64,000 nt of DNA. It comes from an uncultured delta proteobacterium (lineage in GTDB: Bacteria > Desulfobacterota > Desulfobaccia > Desulfobaccales > 0-14-0-80-60-11). The notes beneath the pieces are model-generated. The model searched no databases. It was given only the letters and a program-made list of their open reading frames with translations, and was not told the origin of the DNA. A program made the translations under genes and the position numbers. Shown here piece by piece: positions 18,232-50,481 of this stretch; the stretch's first letter is position 1; every line of letters starts with the position of its first letter. Location of the stretch: NCBI GenBank assembly GCA_963796215.1, contig CAWCKU010000012.1:35049-99048 (forward strand). Direction: 5' to 3'.

Positions 18232-21200
18232 ATGGCAGACGAAAAATCTCCTGACATTACTCAGAAGGAATTGCCCGGGAGCAATCACTTAAATCAGATC
18301 ATCCTGGACAGCCTGCCTTGCGTCGCCCTCCTGCTGCGACCTTCCACCCGAGAGATCGTCGCTTCTAACCAAGCCGCCAGAAAAGTCGGGGCTATCCCGG
18401 GAACGAAAATGCTTTGCTACCTGGGGACAGCGGGAAAATCCCTGCCCCTGGTGTCTGGCTCCGTCTCTTTGGGAAACCGGCCAGCCACAACATCTGGAAG
18501 TAGAGGCATCCGGCATCATCTGGGACGCGCATTGGATACCAGTAGGACCAGACCTGTATCATGCATTATGCCTTCGATATCACTGAGCGCAAGCAGATGG
18601 AGAATGCCCTGGCGGAAGAAGCGATCCGCCGACGCGTGCTGTTCGAGCAATCTAAGGACGGGATCGTGGTCCTTGATCAAAACGGTAAGGTCTACGAGGC
18701 CAACCAACAGTTTGCCGCTATGCTCGGCTATTCTCTCGAGGAAGTCCAGCAGCTCCACGTCTGGGATTGGGATGCGCAATGGACCCGCGAGCAACTGCTG
18801 GAAATGTTCCCGCGCGTCGGGGCGGACGGCGAAAGATTCGAGACAGTCCACCGGCGTAAGGATGGTACGGTTTATGACGTTGAAATAACTGCCAATTGGG
18901 TCATGTTGGCCGGGCAGCAACTGGGGTTTTGCGTGTGCCGGGATATTTCACCAACGCAAGGCCGCCGAGAGGGCTCTGCAGCGAGAGCGAGGAGCGCTTC
19001 CGGGTTTTGGTGGAGGAGGCCTCGGACGCCTTCTTTGTGCATGACTTTAATGGCAGGTTCTACGATGTCAACCGGCGGGCTTGTGAGAGCCTCGGTTATA
19101 CGCGGGAAGAACTTCTGCACATGGGTGTGCTCGATTTGGAGCAAGATTTCGACCTGGCGAAGCGCCCAGAAAGCCTGGGACCAAATCCAGCCCGGCCAGG
19201 CCTTAACTTTGTACGGCCACCACAAGCGTAAGGATGGGACCTCTTTCCCCGTGGAAGTCCATTTGAGCGTTTTCAGCACCAAGGCCAGCGGCTTTTTCTG
19301 GGGCTGGTGCGAGACATCACCGAGCAGCAGCAGGCCCGAGCCGCCCTGGAGGAATCCCTGTCCCTCTACAAGGCCACCCTGGAGTCCACCGCCGACGGTC
19401 TCCTGGTGGCCGATCTCCATGGACGGATGGTGAGCTGGAACCGGAAGTTCATGGAAATGTGGCGTATGCCCGAGGACCTCTGCAATTCCCGGAATGAAGA
19501 AAAAGGCCTGGCATATATTTTGGACCAACTGCAGGACCCGGAAGGCTTCTTAACGAAAGTGAAAGAACTCTATGCCCATCCGGAAACCGAGGACTTCGAC
19601 ACCATCCATTTTAAAGATGGCCGGGTGTTTGAACGCTATTCCATTCCCCAATATCTCGAAAACCGGATCGTGGGCCGGGTCTGGAGTTTCCGGGACGTCA
19701 CCACCCGGGTCCGGGCGGAGGAGGCCTTACGCCAATCCGAGGAAAATTTTCGTCTAATCAACGAGAATATTCAGGATGTCTTTTGGATGAGTACCGCCTC
19801 CCTTGATAAGATCATCTATGTTAGCCCAGCCTACGAAAAGTTGTGGGGCCGGACCAGGGAAAGCCTCTACGCTTCTCCCCAATCCTTCTTAGACGGGATT
19901 CATCCGGAGGATCGTGAGAGAGCCATCGATGTGGTATCAGGTGGACATGCCCAGGGAATCCCCTGGAATGTCGAATATCGCGTGATTCGGCCTGATGGCT
20001 CCATACGATGGATTCAAGACCGCGGCTTTCCCATCAAAGATGGCCAGGGGAATCTTCGCCTATTAACGGGAGTGGCGACGGATATCACCGAGCGCAAGCT
20101 GGCAGAAGAAGGCCTTCGGGAGAGTGAGGAGAGGCTGGTCAAAGCGGAACAAGTTGCCCGGTTGGGCCATTGGGATTTGGACTTAAAAAATCAGAAATTA
20201 GCCTGGTCTAAAGAAGTTTACCTGCTGTTTAGCAAAGACCCCGATACCTTCGTACCGACCTTCGAGACTTTTTTGGACACAATCCATCCGGAGGACCGTG
20301 AGCGATTTCTGTGCATCAGGGACGAGGCAGTAGCGGAAGGCAGAAATTTCACGGTTGACTATCGCATCATCCTGCCCGATGGTTCTTCTCATTTCATGCA
20401 GGAAATAGTGGAGGTTACCAGAAATGGCGTAGGAAATCCTACCAGAATTTTCGGAACCATCCAAGATATCACCGAACTCAAGCAGGCCGAGGAGGAGGTA
20501 GCGTGGCTCGCCTCCTTCCCGCAATTAAACCCGGACCCCGTCCTGGAAGTGAAACCTTCTTCCGGCCGCATCACTTATTGCAACCCTGCGACCATCCAGG
20601 CTTTGGAAAAATTGGAGGTTTCGGAGGGACCACAGGCCTTTTTGCCCCCGGACATGGACCAAATCCTGAAAACCCCCGGGGAAGAAAATATTAGCCGGTT
20701 CTACCGGGAAGTGCAGATAAAGGATACGGTGTTTGGAGAAAACATCGAATTTGTGCCGCAATATAAGGTAATCCGCATTCGCGCCTTCGACATCACCGAG
20801 CACAAACGGGCGAAGGACGCCCTGCGGCAGGAGCGGGATTTTATCGCCGCCCTCCTGCAAACGCTAGGAGCCCTGGTAATAGTAATGGATTGTGCGGGTA
20901 GAGTCGTCCGCTTCAACCGAGCTTGTGAGCAGGCCACCGGCTATACCTTTCAGGAGGTAAAGGGAAAACATATTTTTTGATCTGCTCCTGTTGCCAGAGG
21001 AAGCCGAGGAGACTAAGGAGGTTTTTCAGAAACTGACGTTCGGGGAATTTCCTTCTGTGAACAAGAACCATTGGGTGACGCGGGATGGTGACCGACGACT
21101 GTTCTCCTGGTCTAACACCGTCCTCAAAGATGACCAGGGGCAGGTGCTCTACGTTATCGGGACGGGCATCGACATTACTGAGCGCTGGCAGGCTGAAAAG

Positions 21201-22708
21201 TCCCTCCGGGAATCAGAAACCAAGTACCACTTCTTGATCGATAACCTCAGTGATGGGATTATCTTGGCTGATCTCGACGGCAACATCATGGATACGAACC
21301 GGAAAATTGAGGAATTACTGGATTACAGCAAGGTAGAACTCTTATGTATGAACATTACTCAAATTCACCCGGAAGAAGACTTGCAGAAATTAATGGCTGA
21401 CTTTCAAGAAGGGGTGCGATCGGGAGGAGGTAATGTCTCAACCGCTAGGATACTGCGCAAAGACAAGACAAAGATCCCGATTGAGATAAGCGGCCGGAGG
21501 ATTGAATTTGGCGGAAAAACTATGATGCAGGGGGTCTTTCGAGATATCAGCGAGCGGCAGAAAGCCGAAGAAGAGCGTTTGCGCTTCAGCAAACTGGAGT
21601 CCATGTCTACCCTGGCTGGCGGTATTGCCCACGACTTCAACAATATTCTTACTGCCATCCTGGGGAATATTGGCCTGGCCATGCTGGATAGCAAGAAAGA
21701 ACCCCAGGTTCAGGATAGGCTGGCTCAGGCAGAACAGGCTTGCCTACGGGCGCAAGCCTTGTCTCGGCAACTACTCACCTTTGCCAAGGGTGGGGCACCG
21801 ATTAAAAAGATTGTTTCTATTGCTAATTTACTAAAAGAGTCAGCTAATCTAACGTTATCCGGTTCCAAGTCTCGCCATGAAGTGTCAATCCCTGACGATC
21901 TCTGGTCAGTGGAAGCCGATGAAGGACAGATCAATCAAGTTATCAGCAACTTGCTGATAAATGCCGATCAGGCCATGCCAGAGGGTGGAGTTATCAAGAT
22001 AACCGCGGAAAATATGTTAGTGAAAGCAGAATCGAATTTACCTTTATCAGGGGGGAAATATGTTAAGTTTGCCATCGCCGATCAAGGGATTGGCATCTCC
22101 CCAAAATATTTAGATAAAATATTTGACCCATATTTTAGTACCAAGCAAAAGGGTAGCGGATTGGGCCTGGCGACGGCCTATTCAATTATTAAAAATCATT
22201 CCGGACACATTCAAGTAGAATCCCAAATAGGAGTTGGTGCCACTTTTCATGTCTATCTCCCAGCCACAGACAAAGGAGTTCCTGCTGAATCAGTAGCGGT
22301 AAAACCGGCTATGGGGCAAGGGAAAGTCCTGATAATGGACGATGAAGCAATGGTCAGGGAAGTTTTAGGCAGGATGTTGAGCCGCTTGGGCTACGAGGTG
22401 GATTTTGCCAGCGATGGCTCCCAGGCCATTGAAAAATTTGTCCGAGCCCAGGCAGAGGGGCGGCCATTTACTGCGGTAATCCTTGATCTGACTGTTCCTG
22501 GCGGCATGGGGGGCAAAGATGCCATAAAGGAACTGCTTAAGATCGATCCCCAGGTGAAAGCCATAGTTTCCAGTGGTTATTCCGAAGACCCGATTATGGC
22601 TGATTTTAAAAAATATGGGTTCAGCGAAGTCATTGCAAAGCCTTATAGAGTTGTAGGATGAGCAAAATCCTGCAGGGACTTATTACAAAATGTGTCAATA
22701 AAAGATAA
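18232..22708 (+). CDS. Large cytoplasmic multi-PAS hybrid histidine kinase with C-terminal REC, split by several frameshifts
   Basis: Successive ORFs (18220, 18561, 18896, 19307, 20991) carry contiguous PAS/PAC repeats (DITERK), AHDFNN, GSGLGL and REC; breaks near 18410, 18950, 19160, 19280, 20975, 22658. Confidence 0.85.
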
Positions 22709-22841
22709 CTGCTATGATTCTGGACTTATCAAGCCGCGGAAAATTCAACCTATTCAATACTTATCAATGCTTTTCGACCTGCACTTTAACCTGGATTCCA
22801 TCCCACTTTTCATATGGCAGAGTTTTGAAGGAGGATGAATA

Positions 22842-23012
22842 GTGCTAATCCTTACTCGAAAGGTGGACGAGGCCGTTGTTATTGGAGACTACATAAAAGT
22901 TACGCTCATTCAAATCCGTGGAAAGCAAGTCCGTTTGGGAATTGAGGCTCCGCCTGGCCTCTTGATATTAAGGGAAGAGGAAAAACTTTCTGAGAGGGCC
23001 AAAGGGAGATGA
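22842..23012 (+). CDS. csrA: Carbon storage regulator CsrA (56 aa; below the ORF-track cutoff)
   Basis: Manual translation MLILTRKVDEAVVIGDYIKVTLIQIRGKQVRLGIEAPPGLLILREEEKLSERAKGR; RBS AAGGAGG. Confidence 0.92.
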   Translation: MLILTRKVDEAVVIGDYIKVTLIQIRGKQVRLGIEAPPGLLILREEEKLSERAKGR

Positions 23013-23124
23013 GCCATTCCTAATACAAATCCATATTCTCAATTTTCCCAATCTCTAAAACTGCCTTCTTGAGTAACCAGTTATGGTTGAGGGTAGTGCA
23101 ACTTCCCAAAGAAGGAGCCCGGAA

Positions 23125-25805
23125 ATGATCCAGAAGGCGCTAAAAGTCCTGCTGATCGAAGACAACGAGGCCGACGTTGTCTCGCTGCGCTATTGTTTGG
23201 TGCAATCTCCTTTGGCCCAGGTAAAAATCGAACCTTGCCCAAATCTCGCCGAGGCCTTGAAGCATCTGAGTGATGAGAATGCCGATGTCGACGTTATTTT
23301 GTTGGATCTCGGGTTGCCCGATAGCAAGGGCCTTGAAACCTTTGCCAGGGTTCATCAAAAAGCGCCCCATATTCCCATCGTAATTCTGTCCGGCCTGAGC
23401 GATGAAAGCCTGGCAATTCAGGCTGTCCGGCAAGGCGCCAGGATTATCTAGTAAAAAATTTGGTTAATGGGGACTTGTTGATGCGGGCTCTGCACTATTC
23501 GGTGGAGCGTAAGCGGGCTGAAAAGGCGCTGTGGCAGAGCGAGGAGAAATATCGTTTACTGGTCGATCAGGTCACGGCGGTGCTGTTTCACGGCTTTGTA
23601 GATTGGAGTGTCGATTTCTTCAACAATAAAATAGAATCTCTAACCGGATTTCGTAAGGAGGAGTTTGATTCTCGAGAAATCAAATGGTGTGACCTGATCC
23701 TCCCGGAAGACCTTGATAATGCGCGGCAAATCTTCATAGATGCCCTAAAGACAGACAAATCTTACGTGCGGGAATACCGCATCAGGAGAAAGGATGGAGA
23801 GATTCGCTGGGTTCATTGTCGGGGGCGGATATTCTGTGATGCCAAAGGAGATATTGAGTTCATCAGCGGGGTAACCTTTGACATCACCGAGCGCAAGCAG
23901 GCAGAGGAGGCTTTACGTAAATATAAGTTCATAGCCAACACCGCCAAAGACTGCATGACGTTGATCAACCGCAATTACATTTATGAGGCGGCCAATGCCG
24001 CTTTTTGCCAGGCGCACGGCAAGACCCGGGAAGAAGTGGTGGGAACCAGCCTGGCCAACATTTGGGGGGAAGATAGATTTAAAAATAACATCAAAGGATA
24101 TCTCGACCGATGTTTTACCGGCCAGGCGGTGGACTCCGAAGGCTGGTTTGAATTCGGGAAGAGGGGCAGGGGGTGCTATCATGTCTTTTACACACCATAT
24201 TTTAATGAGGACGGGACGGTGGCTTACGCCGCGGTGGTGAGCCACGACATCACAGACCGGAAGAGGGATGAGAAAGCACTGCGGCAGAGCGAGGCGAAAT
24301 ATCGCCAGTTGGTCCAGCAAATCCCCATGGTGGTTTACAAAGGGTATACAGATTGGAGCCTGGAATGCTTCGACCAAAAGGTTGAGGAAATAACCGGCTA
24401 TTCCATGGAAACATTTAATACTCGTCAGAAAACCTGGCTGGACTTGATACTTCCGGAAGACGTGGATCAGACCAAAAAACTTTTTAAAGCAGCCCTGAAA
24501 GGTGATGGCTCTTATGTCAATGAGCACCGCATCCGCAAGAAAACGGGGGAGGTTCGCTGGATCCAGGCCAGAAACCGGATAATCCGCGATGCTGCCGGGA
24601 AAGTGGATTATATCAGCGGGGTCTTTTTCGATATCAGCCAGCGCAAGAGCCTGGAGGATCAGTTTCTCCAGGCGCAAAAAATGGAAGTGGTCGGCAACCT
24701 GGCTGGGGGGGTCGCCCACGACTTCAACAACCTTCTAAGTGCCATTATGGGTTATGCTGAACTCATAAAAATTGGGATGAACGAGGCTGACCCGTGTCTC
24801 GATTATGTTGAAGAGACGATGAATGCTGCGCAACGGGCTGCGGCGCTGACCCGTCAGCTTTTGGCCTTTAGCCACAGACAAATACTGCAACCTCAAGTAA
24901 TCAATTTAAACTTTGTGATTAGTGACTTGGGGAAAATGCTTCGGCGCCTTATCAACGAAAACATTGAGCTGACCACCGTTCTTGACCCGGAATTGGCATT
25001 AACGAAAGCCGATCCTGGTCAAATCGAACAGGTACTGATGAACCTGGTAATTAATGCGAGTGATGCAATGCCCTCAGGGGGAAACCTTACTATTAGAACC
25101 GGCAATATCTATCTAGACAATTCCTTGCCCCTTAAAAGTCCGTGGCCCTTGCCAGGCAATTACGTGGTGTTGATGGTGAGTGATACTGGGATGGGTATGG
25201 ATGCCGAAATACTTTCCCACGTCTTCGAACCATTCTTTACCACCAAGAAATTTGGCAAAGGCACTGGGCTGGGCCTGTCCACGGTTTATGGGATTGTCAA
25301 GCAGAGTGGAGGCTATATTGAGGTGGACAGCAATCCGGGGATGGGGACAACCTTCAAAATCTATCTGCCTCAGTTCGAGGGAGCTTTACAACCAAAGGAA
25401 GAACTTACTCCCAGTGTGATTCCAAATGGTTCAGAAACCATTCTGCTGGTTGAAGATGATGAAGCTCTGAAGACCGCGACTACTAAGTATCTGGAAAAGT
25501 ATGGCTACTCGGTACTGCAAGCCAGGGATTTTAGTACGGCCATGAATATCTCTGAAAGACATGAAGGTCCAATCCATCTACTGCTGACAGATATAGTCAT
25601 GCCTCATCTAAGTGGACCTGAACTCTCCGAACTCATGGCCTCATTCCGCCCAGAGATGAAGGTAATCTATATGTCGGGCTATTCGGAGGCTCTGATTCTC
25701 GATCAGAAAGTATTAGATTATTCAGCTTTTCTCCAGAAGCCGTTCAAACCGATAGATCTGGTGCTGAAGATACGAGCCGTCTTGGACGATTCATCGGATA
25801 GATGA
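23125..25805 (+). CDS. REC-PAS-PAS-PAS-HisKA-HATPase-REC hybrid kinase, frameshift near 23445
   Basis: N-terminal REC ([10 protein letters not shown]...GA[QDYLVK]) continues into ORF 23460-25805 with AHDFNN and GTGLGL. Confidence 0.9.
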
Positions 25806-26127: not shown

Positions 26128-27351
26128 TTATGCCGGCTTTCTCCGGAGGAGAACAACTTTCTGCTCATTCGCCAGAGATTCAATGCATGCTCCCCACCAG
26201 TCCATCATCTTTTGACGCTCCTCCAAGTATTCAGACCTATGGTAGGCCGCCCGGACCTTGTTCCGCTCAACATGGGCGAGCTGGCGCTCGATAACATCCG
26301 GCCGGAAGCCGGTCTCATTCAGAATCGTGCTCGCCAGTGCCCGGAAGCCGTGCACGGTGGCGCGCTTGTGGTAGCCGAGCCGGTAGAGGGCGTAAAGGAG
26401 GGTATTTTCGGAGATGGGCTTTCCTTGGTCTCGCTGAGACGGGAAGAGTAAATCGCAGTGGCCGGTCAGCGGCCTGAGCTCTTCGAGGACAGTCATGGCT
26501 TGAGGCGATAAAGGGACAATGTGCGGCGACCGCATCTTCATGCGCTCTGCCGGGATGCGCCACTCCCCCTGATCGACATCGAATTCCTCCCAGCGGGCGC
26601 CCCGCAGTTCTCCAGTCCGGACGAAAGTCAGTACGATGAGCCTCAGAGCCAGCTTGGTGATAGATTCGCCGGAATAAGAATCGAGCTTCTTGAGGAAGTC
26701 CGGCAACTCACCCTGAGAGATTGTGGAACGGTGCTCCACCTTGCGGGTTTTCAGAACCCCCTTCATGTCTGCCGCCGGGTTGTAGGATGCCCGGCCGGTC
26801 TGGATGGCATAGCGGAAAATGGCACTGGTCCGCTGCAGGACCCGTGAGGCGACATCAAGGGCACCGCGGGACTCGACCGCCCGGATAACCTCCAGGACCA
26901 TCGGGGGGGTGATCTCCTTAACGGGTAGGTTGCCCAAGGCAGGGAAGGCGTCCTCCTCCAGGGAGGTCACCACCCGGCGAAGGTGTGACTCCGTCCAGCG
27001 GGCGCCGTATGTCCCGGCCCAATCCAGAGCAATCGCCCGGAAGGTATTCTCAACCTGCTTCCACTCGGCGCGCTTCTCCTTCTTTTTTGCGTCGCCCGGG
27101 TCAATGCCCTCCATCAACTGATTCCGGGCCTTGTCGCGCTCCTCCCGAGCCTTCTTTAGCGAGATGCCCTTGTCATAGCTCCCGAGTGCAAGAAGCTTTT
27201 CCTTCCCGCCGAAACGGTACTTTAGCCGCCAGAGCTTCGAACCGCCTGGCTGCACCAGCAAGAACAGGCCGCCGCCGTCGAAAAGCTTGTAGGGTTTGTC
27301 CGCTGGCTTGGCTTGCCGGATCTTGGGATCGGTCAGCTTATCGGTAGGCAT
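26128..27351 (-). CDS. P4/IntA-like tyrosine integrase with arm-binding domain
   Basis: KPYKLFDGGGLFLLV..GSKLWRLKYR; catalytic R (VRTGE), K, HGFR, LAH and Y (AAYHR) all present. Confidence 0.96.
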   Translation of the reverse strand: MPTDKLTDPKIRQAKPADKPYKLFDGGGLFLLVQPGGSKLWRLKYRFGGKEKLLALGSYDKGISLKKAREERDKARNQLMEGIDPGDAKKKEKRAEWKQVENTFRAIALDWAGTYGARWTESHLRRVVTSLEEDAFPALGNLPVKEITPPMVLEVIRAVESRGALDVASRVLQRTSAIFRYAIQTGRASYNPAADMKGVLKTRKVEHRSTISQGELPDFLKKLDSYSGESITKLALRLIVLTFVRTGELRGARWEEFDVDQGEWRIPAERMKMRSPHIVPLSPQAMTVLEELRPLTGHCDLLFPSQRDQGKPISENTLLYALYRLGYHKRATVHGFRALASTILNETGFRPDVIERQLAHVERNKVRAAYHRSEYLEERQKMMDWWGACIESLANEQKVVLLRRKPA

Positions 27352-27441
27352 AGGGTACCTCCTCATGCGTGGGAATCACACTTATTCCGGTTTCTATCCC
27401 ATTCGCCTTGTAACCCGCTCCCTACAAGGAAACAGGATTAA

Positions 27442-31448: not shown

Positions 31449-33608
31449 TCACTGGCTCACTAACTTTTGAATCACCTTAAAAACCTCCGGCGACACCGAG
31501 GTGAAGCGGATCTCGACCTCCGTGCGGCCCTCCGCCCCGGGGTTCACCGCCGTCACCTTGCCGTAGATCTTTCCCGGCACCTCCGTGCCGTCCTCCGCCA
31601 GCAGGTGGAGGCGCACGTCCTGCCAGGCCTCAGGCTCGCCCTGCAAGGCCATCCGGGCCCCGGTTTCTCCCAGCTCGCTGATTCGGGCCTCTTCGATGGT
31701 AATGGTGACGATTTTATCTTTCATCAAGTCCAGGCGCGCCGCCAGAGGTTGGGCTAGCCGCGTCAGGACGTAGCTCTTGGCCTTCAGGCTGATGTTATAG
31801 GGGTCGCCGATGCCCTGCACGATATAGAGGGTAACGGTGCCGCTGACTCCTTTCATCTGGGCCTGCACCTCCCCCTCGATCTGCACCAGATCCCGCACCC
31901 GTTCATAGGTGTCGGGGCTGATAAGCACCTGGCCGCCCATCGCGTAAGCCTCGATGCGGCTGGTGAAGTTGACATGGGCTCCCACCACGCTGTACTTGGT
32001 GCGGCGCTCGGAGCCGATGTTGCCCACCACCACCTCGCCGGTATTCACCGCGATGCCCATCTCCAGGTGCGGGAGATTGTCGGCCTCGTTTAAGGCATTG
32101 ATTTCGTCCATCGCCGCCTGCATTTGCAGGGCGCAGGCCACCGTCCGGGCCGGATGATCCGCCATCGGCGTCGGCGCCCCGAAAAAGGCCAGGATGCCGT
32201 CCCCCACGATTTCGTCGATGACCGCCTGGTTGTCGGTGAGGATCTCGATCATCTTGCCCAGGTAGCGGTTCAGAAAGGTCACCACCTGCTCCGGGTGCAT
32301 GTCCGCGGTGATCGCGGTGAAGCCCCGCAGGTCGCTCATGATGATGGAGACCTCCCGGAATTCGCCCCCCATCTCCAGGGCGTCTTTATCTTCCAGGAGC
32401 TTTTTTACCACTTCCTGGGTGACGTAGCGCCCGAAGGTGTCCCGGACGAAGTCCCGCTTGGCGATGTACTCCGCCAGGTGCTCGCCCATGTGGTTGAAGG
32501 AGCGGGCCAGATGGGCGATCTCCTTGGCGCCCGTTTCCGGTACCGTGGCGCTGAAATCGCCCTGAGCGATGTCCGCGGTTTTCCGGGCCAGGGCCCGCAG
32601 TGGTTTGGTGATCCTCCGGGAGATGCCGGTAATCGCCACGGCCAGGAAAACCAGGCCCAGGATGGCGATGGCCACGGTGCGCTGCACCAGGCGCTGGGCG
32701 TCGGCGAATAATTCGTCATCCGGGAAAACCACCCCCAGGGACCAGCCGGTGGCTGGCAGGGGGGCATAATAAAACCAGGACTTCTTGCCGGTGAGAGATG
32801 CGGGGATGGGCACAAAGCCCTCGCCGCCTCGGATCATATCCCGCCCCACCTCCCGCATCTCGGGAGATTTCCTGGCTTCCGCCAGGCTGAACATGCTCTC
32901 CCGCATGATCCAATCTTCCTTGGGATGGGTGACGAAGACGCCGTCCTGCGAAACGAGAAAGGCGAAGCCGCTCTCATAAATCTTCACCGCGGCGACGATA
33001 TCTGTCAGCCGCCTCAGCGAGAGGTCGGCCCCCACCACCCCGGCCAACTGCCGATGGCCTTCGGTTTCCCGGTAAAATGGCACCGAAAAGGTGGACATGA
33101 CAATGTTGCCGCCGCCTTCGTCAAAATAGGGCGCGCTCCATAGCGGCCGCCCCAATTCCCGGGGGACCTGGTACCAATCCAGGCCGAAGTACTGATAGGA
33201 GTCGCCGCCCAACCATTTAAGTTGCTGCTGATCGCCGTTGCGGAAACAGTAAGGCATGAAATATTTTGACTTGGGATTGCCGGCGTAGGGTTCGAAGGCG
33301 ACGCCCAGGCCGAACAGCTCTTTATTGTGCTCCATGCCCGTCTGAAGCAATTGCACCAAATCATCCCGCTCACAGGAGATATGTTCCAGGGTGTCTGCCA
33401 GGTTCAACGGAATCTTTTCCACCCCCCGCAGGATCACCTCTATCCGGTAAACCGTCTCCCGGGTCAGGTGCATGGCGGTCTCCTGAGCCCGCCGGATGAT
33501 GCCCTCCTTGGAGGCATAATAATTATAGGCTGACGCCGCTAAAAAAATGGCCGCGGCGCCGCTCAGCACAAAGAAGATGAGTTGGGTGGCCAGGCTCTTA
33601 TTTCTCAT
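31449..33608 (-). CDS. Class III nucleotide cyclase (dCache-HAMP-cyclase-PilZ-like tail), Cya2-like, probable guanylyl cyclase
   Basis: dCache DWY..P....WSAPYFDEGGG; SDLRGFT, DEIVGDG, GNIGSERRTKYSVVGAHVNFTSRIE. Confidence 0.88.
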   Translation of the reverse strand: MRNKSLATQLIFFVLSGAAAIFLAASAYNYYASKEGIIRRAQETAMHLTRETVYRIEVILRGVEKIPLNLADTLEHISCERDDLVQLLQTGMEHNKELFGLGVAFEPYAGNPKSKYFMPYCFRNGDQQQLKWLGGDSYQYFGLDWYQVPRELGRPLWSAPYFDEGGGNIVMSTFSVPFYRETEGHRQLAGVVGADLSLRRLTDIVAAVKIYESGFAFLVSQDGVFVTHPKEDWIMRESMFSLAEARKSPEMREVGRDMIRGGEGFVPIPASLTGKKSWFYYAPLPATGWSLGVVFPDDELFADAQRLVQRTVAIAILGLVFLAVAITGISRRITKPLRALARKTADIAQGDFSATVPETGAKEIAHLARSFNHMGEHLAEYIAKRDFVRDTFGRYVTQEVVKKLLEDKDALEMGGEFREVSIIMSDLRGFTAITADMHPEQVVTFLNRYLGKMIEILTDNQAVIDEIVGDGILAFFGAPTPMADHPARTVACALQMQAAMDEINALNEADNLPHLEMGIAVNTGEVVVGNIGSERRTKYSVVGAHVNFTSRIEAYAMGGQVLISPDTYERVRDLVQIEGEVQAQMKGVSGTVTLYIVQGIGDPYNISLKAKSYVLTRLAQPLAARLDLMKDKIVTITIEEARISELGETGARMALQGEPEAWQDVRLHLLAEDGTEVPGKIYGKVTAVNPGAEGRTEVEIRFTSVSPEVFKVIQKLVSQ

Positions 33609-34608
33609 CAGGGGTATCGCAATCGCAATAAAACTTGGAAAAATCGGGAATCTCTCTGATGGTCCCGTCATCCTTCAGACCTTTCGCGGCCCGATAATAA
33701 TCATCCGGGTCCAGGCCGCCTATGGGCCCCCGGGGTCCGGCGGCCAGGATCATGGTCCGCAGGCGCTCCAGCATCCATTGCTGGTGGACCCGGTTGGTGG
33801 GCACATGAGCCGCGTCCACGTATTTCATGACGATGTCCAAAGCTTCCTCGGGGTGGGCCAGGGCATATTCCCAGCCGGCGATGGAACCCTGAACAAATTG
33901 GCGGCACACTTGCGGCTTTTCCTTAAAGGTCCGCTCCAGGCAGTAAATGCCGTCTTCAGGGACATTGAGGCCATGCGCGGCCAGGAAAAAGGCGGTCAAA
34001 TCCTCAGGATTCAGGCCGGCGTTAAGGAGCAGGTGATATTCGTTGTACCACATGGCCGAAGCTACATCCACGCCGCCCCGCAAGAAGAGATTCAGGGTCG
34101 CCCCCTGTGGCACGGTCTGCACCTTAAGACCATACTTGCGGAAAAAGGCATGGACCTGACCTTGGAAATCCTCACCCCAGAGGCCCACCTTTTTGCCATT
34201 GATATCTTCTGGTTCAATGATGCCGCTGGACTTTTTGGCGATCAGCATCAGGGCCGAATGCTGCGCCAACTGGCAAATATTCACCAGTTTAAGGCCCCGG
34301 GCTCGCCGGACAATGCCGGCGGTGAGCTGCATGGTGCCGAAATCGGCCCGTCCCTGGGCCAGCATCTCCGAAGGGGGCCATTCCGGTCCGCCCCGCAGGA
34401 TCCTGACGTCCAGGCCCCGCTCCCGGTAGAAGCCTTTTTCGTAGGCCACGTAGAAGCCGGCGAACTGGGCCTGGGGCTGCCATTGGGGGATGAAGGAGAC
34501 GGTGGCCGACTCGGCGATGCCGACGGCGGCAAAGCACAGGAGAAACCAGATAAAAATCAGGCGGCAAGGCCTTCTGAGGGCTGAATATTGCAGGGGACCA
34601 GGCTCCAT
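33598..34608 (-). CDS. NMT1/THI5-like periplasmic binding protein overlapping the cyclase start
   Basis: Signal peptide; QWQPQAQFAGFYVAYEKGFY, AMWYNE. Confidence 0.9.
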   Translation of the reverse strand: MEPGPLQYSALRRPCRLIFIWFLLCFAAVGIAESATVSFIPQWQPQAQFAGFYVAYEKGFYRERGLDVRILRGGPEWPPSEMLAQGRADFGTMQLTAGIVRRARGLKLVNICQLAQHSALMLIAKKSSGIIEPEDINGKKVGLWGEDFQGQVHAFFRKYGLKVQTVPQGATLNLFLRGGVDVASAMWYNEYHLLLNAGLNPEDLTAFFLAAHGLNVPEDGIYCLERTFKEKPQVCRQFVQGSIAGWEYALAHPEEALDIVMKYVDAAHVPTNRVHQQWMLERLRTMILAAGPRGPIGGLDPDDYYRAAKGLKDDGTIREIPDFSKFYCDCDTPDEK

Positions 34609-36151: not shown

Positions 36152-38125
36152 TCAGGCCGCGGCCTTCAGCCTCTGGCGAATAATCTGGTAGACCTCCGGC
36201 GCCACCGACGTGAAACGGATGGTTGCGGTGAGGCGGCCATCCGCCCCGGTCTGCACCTGGGTCACCTTGCCGTAGATTTTTCCGGGAATGGCCGCGCCCT
36301 GGTCGTCCAGCATCTGCAGGCGCACATCCTCCCATTCCACCAATTCGCCCTCAAAGGCCAACCGGGCTGCGGTCTCGCTGAGATGGGTGGCCCACACCGC
36401 CTCGTTGCTGCCGATGACCACCTTTTCCCGGATGCGGTGCAGATGGAATTTAAGGGGCGCCGGCAGTTGAACCAGGGCCTCCTGCCGGGCCTTAAGCTGA
36501 ATGTTGTAAGGGCCGCCGATGGACCGCACCTCATACAGGGTGGCCTTGCCGGGGATGCCTTTCATCTCCGCAGTCAGAACCTCTCCTATTTCCACCAGGC
36601 CCTTCACCCGCTCATAGGTATCAGCGCTGATGAGCACCTGCCCCCCCAGGGCAAAGGATTCGATCCGGCTGGTAAAATTGACGTGAGCCCCCACCACGCT
36701 GTATTTGGCCCGGCGCTCCGAGCCGATATTACCCACCACCACCGCGCCGGTGTTCACCGCGACCCCCATCTCCAGGTAGGGCAGGCCGTCAGCTTCGTTT
36801 AGAAAATTAATCTCATCCATGGCCGCCTGCATGGCCATGGCGCAAGCCACCGCTCGCACCGGGTGGTCCTCCAGGGGCTCCGGGGCCCCGAAAAAGGCCA
36901 GGATGCCGTCGCCCAGGATCTCGTCGATGACGGCCCGGTAATCCAGGAGAATCTCAATCATCTTCTCCAGATAGCGGTTGAGAAAGGCGATAATATCCTG
37001 CGGCTCCAGGTCGGCGGTCAGGGCGGTAAAGCCCCGCAGATCGCAGATGAGCAAGGACACTTCCCGGGTCTCGCCTCCCATCTCCAGGGCATCTTTGTCT
37101 TCCAGGAGTCTTTTCACCACTTCCTGGGTGACATAGCGCCCGAAGGTATCCCGGATGAAATCCCGTTTTTCGATGTAGTCGGTAAGTTGCTCGCCTAGAT
37201 TATTGAAGGATCGGGCCAGGGCCGCCACCTCCCTGACGCCTTGCTCAGGCACCGCCACCGCGAAATCCCCTTCCCCCACCTGATGCACCGCCGCCTCCAG
37301 ACGGCGCAGCGGCCGGGAAATGGCCCCGGCGAACCACAGGCCTCCCAGGACGGCCAGCAGAGCCAGGACCAGCCCCGCGATCAGACTACCGATCCTGACT
37401 TGCCGATCGATGGCTTTCTCATGTTCCGCCAGGCGCTCCCTGGTCCTGGCCAGGATTTCCTCGCTGGCCCTCTTGATCTCGTCCCCGGTGGGCTTAAAGA
37501 ATTCATCAATATTTACTATGGCCGCGACAATAAACGGCGTCCCGGGAAGGCGCACCCGGGCTGAATACCTTTGCCGCTCTCGCTTTTGGTGGTCAAAAAA
37601 GGTGAAGTATCCCGAGACCTGGTTTTCGGTAAACGACCTTTTCACCAGCTCGGTGGTTTCCGGGTATTCCTCCTGCCAATCCAACTGGTTGCGGCCTTCC
37701 ACCTTGGGGTCGGGATGAAAGAGGATATAACCATGCTGGTCATACAGATCGGTATAGCCGGCTTCCTTCCCAAAGGCATAGATCTTCTGAATAGCCAGTT
37801 TTCTGAGGTTGGGGTTATGACGAATTTGGGCGTAGTCATAACTCTTCTTGCCTTTGAAATAATGCGCCAGTTCCCTGGCAACGTCTTCAGCTTTATCCTG
37901 GACAATATATTCGCCCACCGCGGTGAGAATCTTTTTTGACACCTGGATATTGGCAGCCGTGGCGGTTTGCATGGCCTGGCCCGAGGTCTTCAGGGATCGG
38001 GCCAGCAGGACGTCGGTAGCATAGTCTTCGACGACCGCCATCCCCGCGATAAGCAGCAGAATCAGCGCCAGATAGGAAAACAGCAGATAGGTGCGGATGC
38101 TAAGAGAGCGCAGTGGCATGGCCAT
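36152..38125 (-). CDS. Second Cya2-like class III cyclase (Cache-like sensor, HAMP, cyclase, PilZ-like tail)
   Basis: CDLRGFT, DEILGDG, GNIGSERRAKYSVVGAHVNFTSRIE; cytoplasmic half closely paralogous to 31449-33608. Confidence 0.88.
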   Translation of the reverse strand: MAMPLRSLSIRTYLLFSYLALILLLIAGMAVVEDYATDVLLARSLKTSGQAMQTATAANIQVSKKILTAVGEYIVQDKAEDVARELAHYFKGKKSYDYAQIRHNPNLRKLAIQKIYAFGKEAGYTDLYDQHGYILFHPDPKVEGRNQLDWQEEYPETTELVKRSFTENQVSGYFTFFDHQKRERQRYSARVRLPGTPFIVAAIVNIDEFFKPTGDEIKRASEEILARTRERLAEHEKAIDRQVRIGSLIAGLVLALLAVLGGLWFAGAISRPLRRLEAAVHQVGEGDFAVAVPEQGVREVAALARSFNNLGEQLTDYIEKRDFIRDTFGRYVTQEVVKRLLEDKDALEMGGETREVSLLICDLRGFTALTADLEPQDIIAFLNRYLEKMIEILLDYRAVIDEILGDGILAFFGAPEPLEDHPVRAVACAMAMQAAMDEINFLNEADGLPYLEMGVAVNTGAVVVGNIGSERRAKYSVVGAHVNFTSRIESFALGGQVLISADTYERVKGLVEIGEVLTAEMKGIPGKATLYEVRSIGGPYNIQLKARQEALVQLPAPLKFHLHRIREKVVIGSNEAVWATHLSETAARLAFEGELVEWEDVRLQMLDDQGAAIPGKIYGKVTQVQTGADGRLTATIRFTSVAPEVYQIIRQRLKAAA

Positions 38126-38276
38126 CTCCAAAAATCCCCGGGTTGCTGACCCAGCCCCAGGCGGCAGGACCGGCCCCAGCCATATATTTTGTTCGGATTA
38201 TATAACCTTTCGGCAACTACGGTGAGAAAATGAAGGCTGGCGGAAAAGCTGAGGTGCCGCGGCATTTAACCAACTC

Positions 38277-40679: not shown

Positions 40680-43600
40680 CTATTCCTCTTCCTCTGCCTT
40701 AACAAATGTCTCCACTTCTTTCAAGCAGTTTTGTAAACGTTGCAACGGTGGGCCTTCCTGGGACAGGCGCACCCGTAAGGTTTGGTCCTGAGTGAGGCGA
40801 AAGGTGTCCGGCTGGCTTTTCAACAGGCGGACGAGGCGCGGCAGGTCCAGGCGCTCCGGTTGGGCAAACTGCAACCGGGCGAAGCTGTCCTGCACTTCCA
40901 GGCGTTTGAGGCCCAATTGCCGCAGCCGATGCTTGAGGCGCACCACCTCCAGAAGGTTGCGCCCTTCCGGAGGCAGCGGCCCGAAACGATCCTGGAATTC
41001 TTCCTCCAATTCCTGGACCATCTCCGGGGTCAGGCGGCCGGAAAGCCGCCGATACAGGGCCAGACGCTGCTGGACGTCCGGCACGTAGTCCTCGGGCAGA
41101 TAGGCGGCCAGAGGCAGCCGGATCTCCGGGTCCGGAGCCAAATCCTCCGGCTCCCCCTTGAACTCCCGGATGGCCTGCTCCAGGAGTTGCAGGTAGAGCT
41201 CATAGCCCACCTCCGCCACCTGGCCCGATTGGGCCTGGCCCAGGAGATTGCCGGCGCCCCGGATCTGCAGGTCGTGCATGGCGATCTTGAAGCCGGAGCC
41301 CAATTCAGTGAACTCCATCAGGGCCTTCAGGCGTTTCTGGGCATCGTTGGAGAGGGCCGCCTCATCGGGCACCAGCAGGTAGGCATAGGCCTGGGCCTGG
41401 CTCCGGCCCACCCGGCCCCGCAACTGGTAAAGCTGCGCCAGTCCCAGGGTATGAGCCCGGTTGATGATGATGGTGTTGGCCGCGGGGATGTCCAGACCGG
41501 CTTCGATGATGGCGGTGCACACCAGAACATCCACTTCTTTGCGCCAGAAGCGCACCATCACCTTTTCCAGCTCTCGCTCCGGCATCTGGCCGTGAGCCAT
41601 GGCCACCCGGGCCTCCGGCACCATCTCCTGGACGTGGCGAGCCCAGGTGGCCAGGTTGCGCACCCGGTTGTGCACGAAAAAGACCTGGCCGCCCCGGGCC
41701 AGTTCCCGGCGGATGGCCGCCTGGATCACCGCTCGCTCCGGGCGGCACAGGTAGGTGCGCACCGACCGGCGGTCCTCCGGCGGGGTGTTGATCAGGCTCA
41801 GTTCCCGCAAGCCCGTCAGCGACAGTTGCAGGGTCCGGGGAATGGGGGTGGCGGTGAGGGTGAGCACGTCCACGGTGCGGCGCCACTCCTTCAGCCGCTC
41901 CTTCTGCTTCACCCCGAAGCGCTGTTCCTCGTCGATGATGGCCAGACCCAAATCCTTGAAGACCACATCCTTGGACAGCAGCCGGTGGGTGCCGATGATG
42001 ATGTCCACCTTGCCCCGGGCCAGGTCCGCCAGGATCTGACGCTGCTCCGCCGGCGATCTTGAACCGGCTCAGGGCCCGCACCTCCACCGGGTAAGGCGCC
42101 AGCCGGCGGCTAAAGGTCTCGTAATGCTGCTCCGCCAGCACCGTGGTGGGCACCAGCATGGCCACCTGCTTGCCGTCCATGGCCGCCTTGAAGGCGGCCC
42201 GCACCGCCACCTCGGTCTTGCCGTAGCCCACGTCGCCGCAGATGAGCCGGTCCATGGGCTTATCCGAAGCCATATCGGCCAAGACCTCCTGCGATGGCCT
42301 GCTCCTGGTCCGGGGTCTCGGCAAATTCGAAGGTGGCCTCGAACTCCCGGTACACCGGGTCCGGCGGCGAAAAGTGATGGCCCGGCAGCACCCGGCGCAA
42401 GGCGTAGAGTTCCACCAGTTCCCGGGCGATCTTTTCCACCGCCTTCTTGACCCGGCCCTTGGCCTTCTCCCAGTTCTTGCCCCCCAGGCGCTCGACCCGG
42501 GGCTCCACCCCTTCCACCCCCAGGTATTTCTGCACCAGGTTGAGGCGGTCCACCGGCAGGTAGAGGCGGTCGCCGTTTAAATATTCCAATTCCAGAAAAT
42601 CGTTGGCCTGGGGGCCGACGGAGAGCTTCACCAGCCCCCGGTAGATGCCGATGCCATGGTCCAGGTGGACGATGAAGTCGCCTTCCTCGAGGTCGGCCAG
42701 GGAGGCCAGGTCCTGAGGGGCGCGGGTTTCCTTGCGGCGCCGCCCTTCGGGCCGGAACCCGAGGGCCTCATCTTCGGTGAGGACGATGAGCCCCTGGGAG
42801 AGCAGCCGGAAGCCCCCGGAGAGTTCGCCCACGGTGATTTCCACCCGGCTGCCGGGCTCCCAGGTGGGCGTCAGGTTGACTTCTATCTCTAAATTTTCTT
42901 CCTGCAGCAGACGGGCCAGGCGCTCGGCCCGGTGCCGACTTTTGCCCACCAAAACGACGTGAAAACCGCCCTGTCGCCACTCTTCCAGGCGGCCGGCCAG
43001 GGCCGGCACCAGTCGCCCGGCTTCGGTCCCGGCCTCGGCCAACTCCCGGGCCAAACCGTCGTTTTTCTCCACCCGGTAATGCCAGTCCTTCTCCGGGTGG
43101 GCGTGGCCCCAGGGCAGCAGCGGGCAGAAAACCGTGCTGAATCGGCCCAGGCGCTCCTCCCAGGGGACCTGGTCCAGCCAGCCCTGAGGCTCATGGGCCG
43201 TATCCTCCACCACCTTTTTCAGCTCCCGGGCCAGGCTCATGGGGTCCCAGGCCACCACCACGGTCTCCGGCGGCAGCAGGTCCCACAGGGTCTGGGGCTG
43301 GTCGTAAAATTCTGACAGAAAGCGTTCGATGCGGGGGAAGTGGCGGCCTTCCTGGACGTTTTCCCAAAACTGCGGGTCCTGGCGGCGCTTGCGCCGGGCC
43401 AGGGCGTGTTCCCGGGTCTCGCCGTCCAGCACCACTTCGCTGGCGGGCAACACCACTAACTCGTCCAGGTTCCCCAGGGACCGCTGCGTCGCCGGATCGA
43501 ACCGCCGGATGGACTCCACTTCGTCGCCCCAAAACTCCAGGCGCACCGGCTGTTCATAGAGCGGCGGGAACAGGTCGATGATGCCGCCCCGGACGCTGAA

Positions 43601-44248
43601 TTCGCCCTTCTCCTCCACCACCGGCCGCCGGGCATAGCCCCCATCCAGCAGGTGCTGGAGAAATCCCGGGCGCTCCAGGTTCTCGCCGGGCAGCACGTAG
43701 GCCAGCAGGTTCCGCACCCGCTCGGCCGGCGGCAGCTTCTGGCGCAAGGCCAGGGCCGGGGCCACCATGAAGAAGGGTTGCGCGGCGGTCAGGGCCACAT
43801 AGGCCGCGGCCATCCTGGCGCAACTGATATCTGAGTCAAAGCTCAGTTCCCGGAAGGGCAGGACTTCGTGGCCCGGGAAGAGCCAAAGGCGCGCCCCGGG
43901 GCCGGCAGCCGGGTCCGCCGCCGCTCCGAGAAAAAAAGCCAGGTCCTTCAGGAAGGTCTCATGGCCCTCGCCGTTGGGGGTCACCAACAGGAAGGGCCGT
44001 TGCCAGTTGCCGAAAGAGGTTGGCCAGTAGGTAGGCCCCAGAGGCTGGGGTAAGACCTTGCAAAAAAACCTGGCTGGGTTCCTTGGCAAAACGCCGTCAA
44101 AAGGTGCTGGGATTCGACTCCCGTTGCCAAAGCAGAATGCATTGCTTAATGATATCCGTGAATTTATGAAATCTTCAAGTGGGCAGACACCGCGCTGCTC
44201 CAAGCCACGGCCAGACTGACCTGTAAGGCGGGCGTCCTCGCCCGCCAT
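40680..44248 (-). CDS. mfd: Transcription-repair coupling factor, split by frameshifts near 42055 and 42295; start uncertain
   Basis: [17 protein letters not shown] domain [41 protein letters not shown]-terminal domain. Confidence 0.95.
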
Positions 44249-44349
44249 TGTAAGCCGGGCCTGAAAGCCCGCCTGCCGGATACCCTTGATTTTTCGAAAA
44301 TCGGATTAATCATATTTCAGTTCTTAACTGCATGAGGACGGAAAAATCC

Positions 44350-46188: not shown

Positions 46189-46749
46189 GACTTTCCTCCG
46201 ATATGAGCTTGTTCTTCCCGGTTACAGTCCAGTTCCCCTTCCTGACCCGGTTCCTGATCCATCTCCCTTCCCCAAATTAATCACCCCAGGATTGGTTGTC
46301 ACCCAAGGGAGAAATATATTGGCCGGATGAGACGGCACTAAAATTCAGCCATGACGTTATATATCTAGTCAATTATTTTCACTGATTGATTCATTTTATG
46401 AACATTTCCCTTTCTTACCCAACCAAACCCCTTAGCAGAAAAACCACCCTCAGGCCTTTCAACCCCGATAACTGTTCTTTTAACCGGCTCCTGAAGATAT
46501 TTTTTCCCTAGCCCTGATTGCTTTTGGGCCCCCCTGGGTTGTACTTCCTTTTCTGGTATCCCTCCGTCCCGTAAAACTGGCAAGATAATTGCACAATTAA
46601 GCCTTGAATAAAGTAAAACTGCTCTACCTAAAATTTGCTTTCAGAAAAATGAACAAATTCCCCACCCGACCAGGGGAACCGAGAGGTGTGGCCGGATGGG
46701 ATCGGCCGCTAGGCCATGATCCCAAAATCTACGATTCGGGAAGGTCAAT

Positions 46750-47454
46750 TTGCTGATACTCACCCGCAGGGTTGGTGAAGGCATCCTCATTGGCGACGGC
46801 ATCCGGGTGGTGGTTCTGGAAGTCCGGGGTAAACAGTTCCGCCTGGGGATCGAGGCCCCCATGGATGTGGTCGTCCTGCGGGATGAAATTTTCCAGCGTC
46901 TGGCCAAGGAAAACCTTCAGGCCTCCACCTTCCTTCTCCGTGACCTGCAAGACTTGAAGCAGCAGACCAACGGCAAAATCACCACCAGTTTCCGCCCTGC
47001 CGAGGCGCCGCCGGAGGTACCGCGCTTGCCGGTCGACACCGGTAAATTGGGGTCCATCCAGATCCCGGAAGATCAGCTCATCACCTTCAGTCAAGGCCTT
47101 TTGGGGCTCAACGAATTTTTTCAGTTCGTCCTGTTGGCTCCGCCGGAGACCTCGCCTTTTCTCATCCTGCAAGGCGTCGATCAACCGGAGCTGGCTCTGG
47201 CGGTGGTTGAACCAGCCAGCCTGGTGCCCAATTTCCGGTTTAACCGCCTCAACTCCAACCTGGAGGAGCTGAAAGCCCAAAGTCCCGAGGATTTACAGGT
47301 GTTCGTACCCCTGACCATCCCCAACGGACAGCCTGAGGCGGCCACCGCCAATCTGGTGACCCCCATCCTCATCAACCCGAGGCGTCGCCTGGGTAAGCAG
47401 GTAGTTCTGGAAAATCAGCAATATTCCCACCAACATCGCCTCCTGCCGAATTAA
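46750..47454 (+). CDS. CsrA-FliW in-frame fusion
   Basis: N-terminal [16 protein letters not shown]...RLGIEAP.DV.VLRDEI (CsrA); C-terminal [34 protein letters not shown] (FliW). Confidence 0.85.
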
Positions 47455-47732: not shown

Positions 47733-47780
47733 GGTCAAGCCATTACTGGTCGCCGACTTCAAGATGGAGGTAAACAAGGC

Positions 47781-50481
47781 ATGAGCAAGGCAACCCTCAA
47801 CCTTAATGGGATGACGGTGGAGTTCCAGCCCGGTCAGACCATTTTAGAAGTGGCCCGGGGGCACGGGATCTATACCATTCCCACCCTGTGCTATCTGAAA
47901 GATACTACCGCCACCGGATCGTGTCGCATGTGCATGGTGGAGGTGGAAAAGGCCCGGACCCTGCTGCCGGCCTGCGCCACCGTGGTCAACCCCGGCATGG
48001 TGATCAAAACCGAATCCCCCCGGATTGACGCCGCCCGCAAGATGGTCCTGGAACTGCTGCTGGGCTCCGGCAACCACAACTGCCTGGTCTGTGAGGCCAA
48101 CGGCGAGTGCGAACTCCAGGCCCTGGCCTATCGCTATGAAGTCCCCACCCCCAGCTTTGCCAATCCTCCGGGCACCCAATACTATTACGAAGATAACAAC
48201 AGCATGATCGTCCGGGACTTCTCCAAGTGCATCATGTGCGGCCGTTGCGTCCGGGGCTGCAATGAGCGCCAGGTCAACCAGGCCATTAGCATCGGCTACC
48301 GGGGCTCGCACAACAAGATTGTGGCCAAGGCGGATTATCCTTATATCGATTCAGACTGCGTCTTTTGCGGCGAATGCGTGCAGTCCTGCCCCGTGGGGGC
48401 CCTGCTGGATAAAAACGCCATGCACCAGGGCCGTTCCTGGGAGCGCCGCCACGTCCGCACCACCTGCCCCTATTGCGGGGTCGGCTGCCAGATCGACCTC
48501 CACGTCAAAGGCGGCCAGATCGTCAAGGCCATGGGCGCCCAGGCCCTGCCCAACGAAGGCCGGCTGTGCGTCAAGGGCCGCTTCGGCCTGGGCTTCGTGC
48601 AGCATCCGGACCGCTTGAAAACCCCGCTCCTCCGCAAAACCAAAAATGGCGAACTGCAGGAAGCCACCTGGGATGAAGCCCTGGATTTCGTGGCCAGCCG
48701 CCTGAAGGAAGTCAAGGAGAAACACGGCCCCGAAAAGATGGGCGGCTGGAGTTCGGCCCGGACCACCAACGAAGAAAATTATCTCCTGCAAAAACTGATG
48801 CGCGCCGTGATCGGCAGCAACCATGTCGATCACTGCGCCCGTCTCTGACACAGCTCCACCGTGGCCGGACTGGCCGCGTCCTTCGGTTCCGGAGCTATGA
48901 CCAACTCCATCGCCGAATTGGAGGATGCCGATTGCATCCTGGTAATCGGCTCCAACACCAACGAAAACCATCCGGTGATTGCAGCCCGCATCAAGCGGGC
49001 GGCTCGCCTGAAAAATAAAGACCTGATCGTCATCGATCCTCGCAAACAAGATCTGGTGAAATTCTCCCGCCTCTGGCTGCGGCAGACTCCGGGCACCGAC
49101 ATCGCCGTGGTCAACGGCATGATGAATATCATCATCCAGGAAAAGCTTTACGACGAAACCTACGTCGCGCGAGCGCACCGAGAACTTCGAGGCCTTGAAA
49201 GAGATGGTGGCCAAGTACACCCCGGCCTATGTCGAAAAGATCAGCGGCGTCCCGGCCGACGCCCTGGCGGCGGCGGCCCGGATGTATGCCAGGGCCAAGG
49301 CCGGCTCCATCGTCTACTGCATGGGCATCACCCAGCACACCGTGGGCACCGACAACGTCAAGACCCTGGCCAACCTGGCCATGCTCTGCGGCAACGTCGG
49401 CATCTACGCCGGCGGCGTCAACCCCCTGCGCGGCCAGAACAACGTCCAGGGCGCCTGCGACATGGGCGGCCTGCCCAACGTCTTCTCCGGCTATCAGCCG
49501 GTCACCGACGCCAACAACCGCAAGAAGATGGAGGCGGCCTGGGGCGTTAAAAACCTCCCCGATTGGGTGGGCATGACCATGACCGACATGCTGCCGGCCA
49601 TCTCCAAGGGCGGCATCAAGTCCCTGTACATCATCGGCGAAAATCCGGCCCTCACCGATCCCGACTCCGACCACGCCATCAAGGCCATGCAGCAACTGGA
49701 CCTCTTGGTGGTCCAGGATATCTTTCTGACCGAAACCGGTAAGCTGGCCGACGTGGTCCTGCCGGCCTCCACCTTCGCCGAAAAAGACGGCACCTTCTCC
49801 AACACCGAACGCCGGGTGGCTCGGGTGCGCCAGGCCATCCCGCCGGTGGGACAAAGCAAACCCGACTGGAAGATCATCTGCGAGATTTCTAATCGCCTGG
49901 GCTATCCCATGAATTATGGCAGCCCCGAAGAAGTTTTCGAAGAGATTCGCCAGGTGACTCCCGCCTATGCGGGGATTTCCTATAAGCGTCTCGATGCCGG
50001 CGGCCTGCAATGGCCCTGCCCCAACGAGGAGCACCCGGGCACCGTCTATCTCCACAAGGACCGTTTCGCCAAGGGCCTGGGGACGTTTTTTGCCATCGAC
50101 CACCACGATCCGGCTGAGATGCCCGACGCCCAATACCCGCTCTATCTCACCACCGGGCGGCTCTTGTATCAATATCATTCGGGCACGATGAGCCGGCGGG
50201 CCCCCGGCCTGGCGGAAAAAGCGCCGGAGTGCCAGGTGGAACTGGCCGCCTCGGATGCCGCCAAATACGGCATTGCCGCCGGCGACCAGGTGAAGATTCG
50301 CACCCGCCGCGGCGAGATCACCGCCAAGGCGCAAATCTCCGCCAAGGCCGTTCCCGGCACCGTTTTCCTGCCGTTTCATTTCGCCGAGGCCTCGGCCAAT
50401 AAACTGACCAACGCCGCCCTGGATCCGGTCTCCAAGATTCCGGAATACAAGGTCTGTGCGGTGCAGATCGAGAAAGCATAA
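47781..50481 (+). CDS. fdhF: Selenocysteine-containing cytoplasmic formate dehydrogenase alpha subunit (NuoG-like Fe-S N-terminus); frameshift near 49170
   Basis: Fe-S motifs, [10 protein letters not shown], in-frame TGA at 48846 in [28 protein letters not shown]. Confidence 0.93.
48861..48877 (+). promoter_or_regulatory. Bacterial SECIS hairpin
   Basis: GTGGCC-GGACT-GGCCGC stem-loop 12 nt after the in-frame UGA, with G in the loop. Confidence 0.75.

Follow-up and report, generated by a model that had tools for sequence, protein, structure and literature searches.

A natural CsrA-FliW fusion conserved in three bacterial genera in which no flagellin was found

Few bacterial regulators of translation have been studied as well as CsrA, and the known logic of its control by FliW relies on flagellin; to our knowledge, FliW is the sole widespread protein antagonist of CsrA. 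What, then, is to be made of a single reading frame that encodes both proteins where no flagellar gene is to be seen? The question arises from 64,000 nucleotides of an uncultured delta proteobacterium (this whole stretch is referred to as the window), in which an earlier note, made from the letters alone, had pointed out a 234-aa ORF composed of CsrA, a linker and FliW and had proposed that it acts as a self-inhibited regulator. Our analysis confirms the observation itself and supports part of the interpretation.

The architecture was borne out by the ORF listing, Pfam and NCBIfam alike (Table 1). The Pfam model of CsrA (PF02599) matches residues 1-51 with 72.7 bits against a cut-off of 27 (E 2.4e-20), and that of FliW (PF02623) matches residues 111-231 with 112.6 bits against a cut-off of 25 (E 1.3e-32). 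Residues 1-58 pass both NCBIfam equivalog cut-offs for CsrA (NF002469, 79 vs 73; TIGR00202, 74.7 vs 70.1). For residues 95-232 the top FliW model, NF009793, scores 120.2 bits and stays below its equivalog cut-off of 130, as the remaining NCBIfam FliW models likewise stay under theirs. The fused ORF holds a complete CsrA and a complete FliW. GGA-rich start regions occur in other fused genes of the window's genus as well. An autoregulatory leader, i.e., a GGA-in-loop hairpin 5' of the start, was considered and rejected, as it is absent from the predicted fold of 46660-46760; this region is no more stable than its shuffles (z = -0.84). In a promoter and terminator scan of 46150-47850, the number of sites was not above that of shuffles, and the sole promoter-like site (47543-47570) lies 3' of the fused ORF.

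Table 1. Coordinates of the fused gene, its parts, the stand-alone csrA genes and other features of the window.
Feature	Position	Strand	Remarks
csrA::fliW fused ORF	46750..47454	+	234 aa, TTG start, TAA stop
SD-like GGGAAGG	46738..46744	+	putative, read from the sequence; 5 nt 5' of the TTG start; contains GGA
CsrA core, residues 1-58	46750..46923	+	R6, R44 and N55 (codon 46912-46914) conserved
Connector, residues 59-95 (~40 residues)	46924..47034	+	includes CsrA tail helix 63-73 and FliW N-terminal arm
Internal GGAGGT (47013-47018) and in-frame TTG (47026-47028, codon 93)	47013..47028	+	read from the sequence
FliW domain, residues 96-234	47035..47451	+	N201, G215, K216, Q217 (codon 47398-47400)
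Stand-alone short CsrA, 56 aa	22842..23012	+	without the C-terminal helix bearing N55
Further short CsrA genes, 53 and 56 aa	G000 C3:231206-231337, C13:185908-186042		elsewhere in the same genome
PAS-domain hybrid histidine kinases and single-domain response regulator	18561..25802	+	surround the 22842 csrA
Formate-dehydrogenase-like gene	47781..50481	+	two ORFs, 47781-48848 and 49195-50481; TGA at 48846-48848
mfd (TRCF)	40680..44305	-	open 42260-44305, frame change, stop 42069-42071, then 40680-42068
HAMP + adenylate/guanylate-cyclase membrane sensors (two)	31452..33671 and 36152..38128	-	large
Group II intron reverse transcriptase/maturase ORF	16498..17814	+	
Phage-type integrase ORF	26131..27366	-	

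The fusion is not confined to this genome. Among the best 120 of 158 matching public protein clusters, 119 carry both Pfam domains; these clusters range from 222 to 268 aa, reach down to 46% identity and stem from several source collections (JGI, ENA, NCBI, Logan). The window's order was surveyed through 83 genomes. In three of its genera, 34 of 37 genomes have the full-length frame without interruption: every one of the 15 from the genus of the window itself (g1), 16 of 18 in a second (g2), the remaining two being 87% and 56% complete, and three of four in a third (g257), where the fourth gave a partial match. The three genera diverge to 46-50% identity. Freshwater and sediment are among the sources of samples with close relatives. 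The earlier note had allowed that relatives might all have two separate genes, which does not hold for these genera. We conclude that the fusion is a real, conserved variant of the CsrA-FliW system.

How the two genes came to be joined can be read from relatives. Flagellated kin of the same family have the order flgA-flgH-flgI-flgN-flgK-flgL followed by separate csrA (76 aa) and fliW (156 aa) genes, beyond which FeS protein, MvhD-like and HdrA-like genes lie on the opposite strand. In non-flagellated kin the flagellar genes are absent and mfd adjoins csrA-fliW or the fusion; g2, g257 and the unfused genera still have the FeS/MvhD/HdrA-like genes on the downstream side, and g1 shows further rearrangement of the surroundings. 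The window's fusion has mfd, msrAB and yceI upstream, and downstream a formate-dehydrogenase-like and then a NuoF-like gene. In three genomes (G416 and G454, in which no flagellin was found, and the flagellated G244), the csrA and fliW halves are separated by a single in-frame TAA, with the fliW start 2-7 codons past it; therefore, the loss of one stop codon suffices for fusion. By the same layout, connector residues 59-95 correspond to the old CsrA tail, intergenic codons and the FliW N-terminal arm. In an alignment of 29 fused genes, the connector is variable in sequence and has only one indel. We propose that a stop codon was lost between adjacent csrA and fliW genes closing a flgN-flgK-flgL cluster, and that the lineage would later have lost its flagella while the fused gene stayed under purifying selection. 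Support is good for both the fusion and this origin. A single fusion origin within the family was also considered: in the FliW-domain tree the g1 and g2 fusions group together (SH-aLRT 90) and g257 is left unplaced, so that one and two events are indistinguishable.

The flanking genes have peculiarities of their own. The downstream formate-dehydrogenase-like gene reads as two ORFs, the first of which ends at a TGA just past a ...VDHCARL motif. Going by the sequence, this TGA could be a selenocysteine codon, and other breaks are possible in the ~350 nt between the ORFs; a kin locus (L066) displays a matching two-ORF pattern. On the upstream side mfd is in pieces, which points to a broken gene or else to a misassembly; it forms one ORF of 1151-1179 aa in several kin, and looks split in L071, L078 and L079 too. 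Within 15 kb upstream of the fusion lie two HAMP-cyclase sensors, one of which bears Cache/PDC sensor domains. The intron reverse transcriptase and integrase ORFs hint at mobile DNA in the window's first half.

We then turn to the flagellum. The 37 genomes of g1, g2 and g257, many of them 97-100% complete, gave no match to either Flagellin_N or FlhA (0/37 for each); across the order, matches to the two were obtained in 30/83 and 29/83 genomes, respectively, all outside the fused genera. The earlier note had seen no flagellar genes in the window and had suggested looking for flagellin in the genome; none of the 57 window ORFs scanned matched a flagellar Pfam family, and the window's genome (84.58% complete), whose sole FliW is the fusion, gave no match to Flagellin_N, Flagellin_C or FlhA/FHIPEP. 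Unfused FliW also occurs without flagellin, in g255, g256, g259, g260 and two g10 genomes. Keeping the module once flagella are lost is thus characteristic of the order, with fusion as one outcome.

Fusions were also found elsewhere. A search of 1.84 billion cluster representatives brought up more CsrA+FliW proteins with shorter connectors (204-243 aa), one of which (222 aa, 152 contigs, 36% identical) maps to uncultured Mailhella / Desulfovibrionaceae MAGs. At three of the Mailhella loci no stop separates the halves, and at a fourth the genes are unfused; the gene order is flgJ-flgN-flgK-flgL-csrA::fliW, and the fused form occurs in only 3/121 sampled genomes of the family. Two of the three fused Mailhella genomes (G469, G471) gave flagellin-type matches, and the third (G470) only a FlgL-like match. 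The Mailhella protein has the same architecture and order as the window's and keeps the equivalents of N55 and Q217, but its connector is shorter and its gene lies inside a flagellar cluster. Judging by these comparisons, it probably originated independently. The CsrA-FliW fusion arose at least twice, and the window's case is unusual in persisting without flagellin. Moreover, the finding of a fused gene among the flagellar genes of flagellin-bearing Mailhella indicates that fusion is compatible with a flagellin circuit, which weakens the flagellin-independent switch that the earlier note had implied.

As side observations, a V4R-domain protein and a GGDEF diguanylate cyclase are encoded directly downstream of csrA::fliW in one Mailhella MAG (L080, 6734-8219). 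Further architectures were present among the public representatives: tandem FliW-FliW of 260-326 aa (P0127, P0128, P0131, P0133, P0145, P0147, P0164, P0175, P0250), tandem CsrA-CsrA (P0166, 159 aa) and CsrA with a glycosyltransferase domain (P0137, 194 aa).

Could the two halves of the fusion still bind each other? According to the accessible part of Oshiro et al. (10.1101/2020.07.02.184341), N55 of CsrA and Q124 of FliW form an invariant contact pair required for binding, N108, Q124 and G122/K123 are the CsrA-binding FliW residues of B. subtilis, and the K123-D41 salt bridge is Bacillales-specific; the accessible part of PMC13407953 reports that FliW-CsrA binding depends on N55 in Geobacter sulfurreducens. 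In the fusion, N201, G215, K216 and Q217 align with N108, G122, K123 and Q124 of Geobacillus FliW. N55 is invariant in the genome copies (29/29) and present in at least 90% of 77 fused proteins, throughout which Q217, G215 and N201 are invariant. Two features count against docking: position 41 is Val, and a counterpart of the K123-D41 bridge is absent; and g1 has Leu in place of B. subtilis P26, as does the flagellated relative G244.

The CsrA half aligns to E. coli CsrA (1y00) across residues 1-60, and L2, L4, R6, R44 and their neighbours, which we take to be the RNA-binding residues of CsrA strands beta1/beta5, are identical in the two. In the 77 fused proteins T5, R6, R44 and R50 are invariant, and L2 and L4 nearly so. 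Members of the CsrA/RsmA family form interlocked homodimers that recognise GGA motifs. The FliW half folds like 5dmd_A/5dmb_A (target TM-score 0.89-0.90, rmsd 1.7-1.8 A). In the full-length AlphaFold2 model (pTM 0.78), residues 51-100 reach a pLDDT of 89-96 and the CsrA core, which needs a dimer partner, 61-76. When residues 1-95 were folded alone, residues 51-95 dropped to 46-71 and the core stayed at 64-81; the order of the connector thus depends on the FliW half, in a comparison of a 77-row alignment for the full length with a 29-row one for the fragment.

We read the fusion as a tethered, self-antagonised CsrA that arose by stop-codon loss, was kept after flagellar loss and is released by a partner, and assign this statement as a whole a probability of roughly 0.55. 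We are nearly certain of the parts that have been demonstrated: the fusion is real, its origin is as described, flagellar genes are absent, and the contact and RNA-binding residues have been retained. For the rest, we infer docking in cis, inhibition by default and release by a partner, in the form of a working model. An N55-Q217 contact would seat the FliW half on the CsrA half, at the C-terminal helix and tail of the latter. In the dimer, antagonist and CsrA would come in an invariable 1:1 ratio, with one FliW half tethered to each subunit, and the local concentration of the antagonist would be very high. Unless some partner binds the FliW half and draws it away, the face of CsrA that contacts RNA would stay inhibited; only when freed would it bind GGA-containing mRNAs and repress their translation. 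The self-inhibition put forward in the earlier note is plausible, then, in that the residues holding FliW (N55 and Q217) are retained, with inhibition by default as the conjectural part of it. In flagellated Mailhella, the releaser could still be flagellin; given that no flagellin was found in the window's clade, the releasing partner there cannot be flagellin. A non-flagellin partner is purely conjectural, no candidate for it having been found.

A more specific version of this model, in which rewiring has turned the FliW half into a sensor of some non-flagellin protein and substitutions at W139 and G204 mark its changed partner surface, strikes us as tentative and somewhat unlikely. Both residues are invariant in 15/15 unfused FliW proteins and replaced in 29/29 fused copies, a pattern that counts against self-antagonism. 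W139 is replaced in 2/2 unfused non-flagellated copies too, and Geobacillus has Ile there; its link to flagellar loss is imperfect and suggestive only. As a mark of flagellin binding W139 was rejected, since the 15 W-bearing unfused rows include G184, which is without flagellin, and seven of unchecked status. G204 aligns with A111 of the 'N55-proximal cluster' described in the accessible part of 10.1101/2020.07.02.184341. If true, the rewired fusion would be a whole partner-switching regulator (sensor, antagonist and RNA-binding effector) in one polypeptide, with a non-flagellar regulon.

Alternatively, the fusion could be a decaying relic that lost its input together with the flagella, leaving an inert CsrA, locked for good by FliW and destined to be lost. 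The missing flagellin of all 37 fused-genus genomes is what such a history would leave behind, as are a related genus (g9, 9 genomes) that retains CsrA and no FliW, a genome (G411) lacking the fusion at 87% completeness, the lost W139 and the presence of three other short CsrA genes that could handle the RNA work. Selection was gauged by pairwise Nei-Gojobori dN/dS. In the fused genes the ratio is 0.09-0.34 for CsrA, 0.39-0.73 for the connector and 0.12-0.71 for FliW, compared with 0.06-0.17 for CsrA and 0.14-0.38 for FliW in flagellated kin, to which the connector does not apply. Some close g1 pairs reach 0.60-0.71 in FliW, which suggests relaxed constraint and fits decay, although these ratios are noisy because dS is low in close pairs. 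Against decay, dN/dS is below 1 in all 29 comparisons giving a ratio (in a 30th, dS was 0), and FliW of g2, at 0.12-0.23, matches its flagellated kin. The frame, moreover, has stayed intact in nearly all genomes of three well-diverged genera, with the connector's length kept and the contact and RNA-binding residues invariant. We therefore consider a relic improbable.

The three stand-alone CsrA genes bear on another reading, in which CsrA is active and FliW has been put to a different use (as an adaptor, or in localisation or stability), or in which the fusion controls the short CsrAs via mixed dimers. A stand-alone CsrA at 22842 had been named in the earlier note as coexisting with the fusion; it is real, and is one of three such genes in the genome. 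The C13 copy has a C-terminus nearly identical to that of the 22842 copy, and all three proteins (53-56 aa) stop short of the N55 helix and would be out of FliW's reach, given its known mode of binding. In the survey of the order, extra short CsrA matches are largely a feature of the fused genera that lack flagella, as opposed to the flagellated genera. The 22842 gene is set among signalling genes (Table 1), an unusual setting for csrA. While these paralogues would supply partners for mixed dimers, and the replacement of W139 and G204 in every fused copy is in keeping with a FliW of altered use, the conservation of N55-Q217 and of G215/K216 would be unexpected had the contact with CsrA been abandoned, and we give this reading, too, a low probability.

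One gene could also yield two products: translation from the internal GGAGGT-TTG could also give free FliW, which would restore a two-protein mode of working. The motif and the TTG stand where the earlier note had placed them, 7 nt apart, the ancestral fliW start lies within a few codons of this site, and 12/15 g1 copies have a TTG at that column. However, an SD-like motif precedes the TTG in only 5/29 fused genes, the 14 g2 and g257 genes have no start codon at the column, and the GGAGG derives from variable Pro-Glu-Val codons. Free FliW, as the earlier note had raised it, is hence possible in this species and not a conserved trait, and as an account of the fusion we find two products very unlikely.

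There remains the assembly itself. Contigs of four runs from four studies span 46600-47600 and, over the junction at which the earlier note had suggested checking reads for an indel, restore no stop. They contain no indel within the ORF, the only two (46629 and 47468) lying outside it, and single contigs cross the junction gap-free over 46600-47336 (15 substitutions) and 46600-47237 (14). That two ordinary genes were joined only by an artefact, through a deleted stop or a shifted frame, is next to inconceivable, for although the source assembly consists of 27 contigs at 84.58% completeness and sister genomes differ from the fusion by one in-frame stop, the identical frame recurs in 34 independent genomes and in clusters of several collections, and the contigs of the four studies cross the junction without a gap.

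Returning to the tethered, self-antagonised CsrA, its closest known counterpart is the Hag-FliW-CsrA checkpoint of Bacillus subtilis and Geobacillus thermodenitrificans (5DMB), with which it shares the two families, the N55-Q124 pair and the C-terminal extension of CsrA, as well as, for the window module's ancestral site, a place beside flagellar late genes. It differs in being a single polypeptide in the order csrA then fliW, and in lacking flagellin, FlhA, a flagellar neighbourhood and a counterpart of K123-D41. The CsrA-FliW pair of Geobacter sulfurreducens, which belongs to a related deltaproteobacterial-type lineage, depends on N55, a residue that the window's fusion retains, and serves a non-flagellar trait (biofilm), but consists of two separate proteins, according to the accessible part of PMC13407953. 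In enteropathogenic E. coli, CesT offers another case in which a protein, and not an sRNA, antagonises CsrA, as FliW does; unlike the FliW half, it has an unrelated fold and is a separate protein, as far as the accessible part of PMC5864733 goes. No description of a natural CsrA-FliW fusion was found among the papers that the literature searches listed (full text, with subscription journals and supplements outside its scope), and the accessible parts of PMC13443453, PMC9321776 and PMC10746217 do not mention one.

Under the public names 'FliW' or 'CsrA' the architecture of such proteins is hidden and a flagellar function is wrongly implied. A natural covalent CsrA-FliW confirms the physical pairing of the two proteins and suggests selection for a fixed 1:1 ratio, and its purifying selection without flagellin poses the question of what FliW senses when the flagellum is absent. 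The fusion also provides a ready single-chain construct for structural and biochemical study of the allosteric inhibition step.
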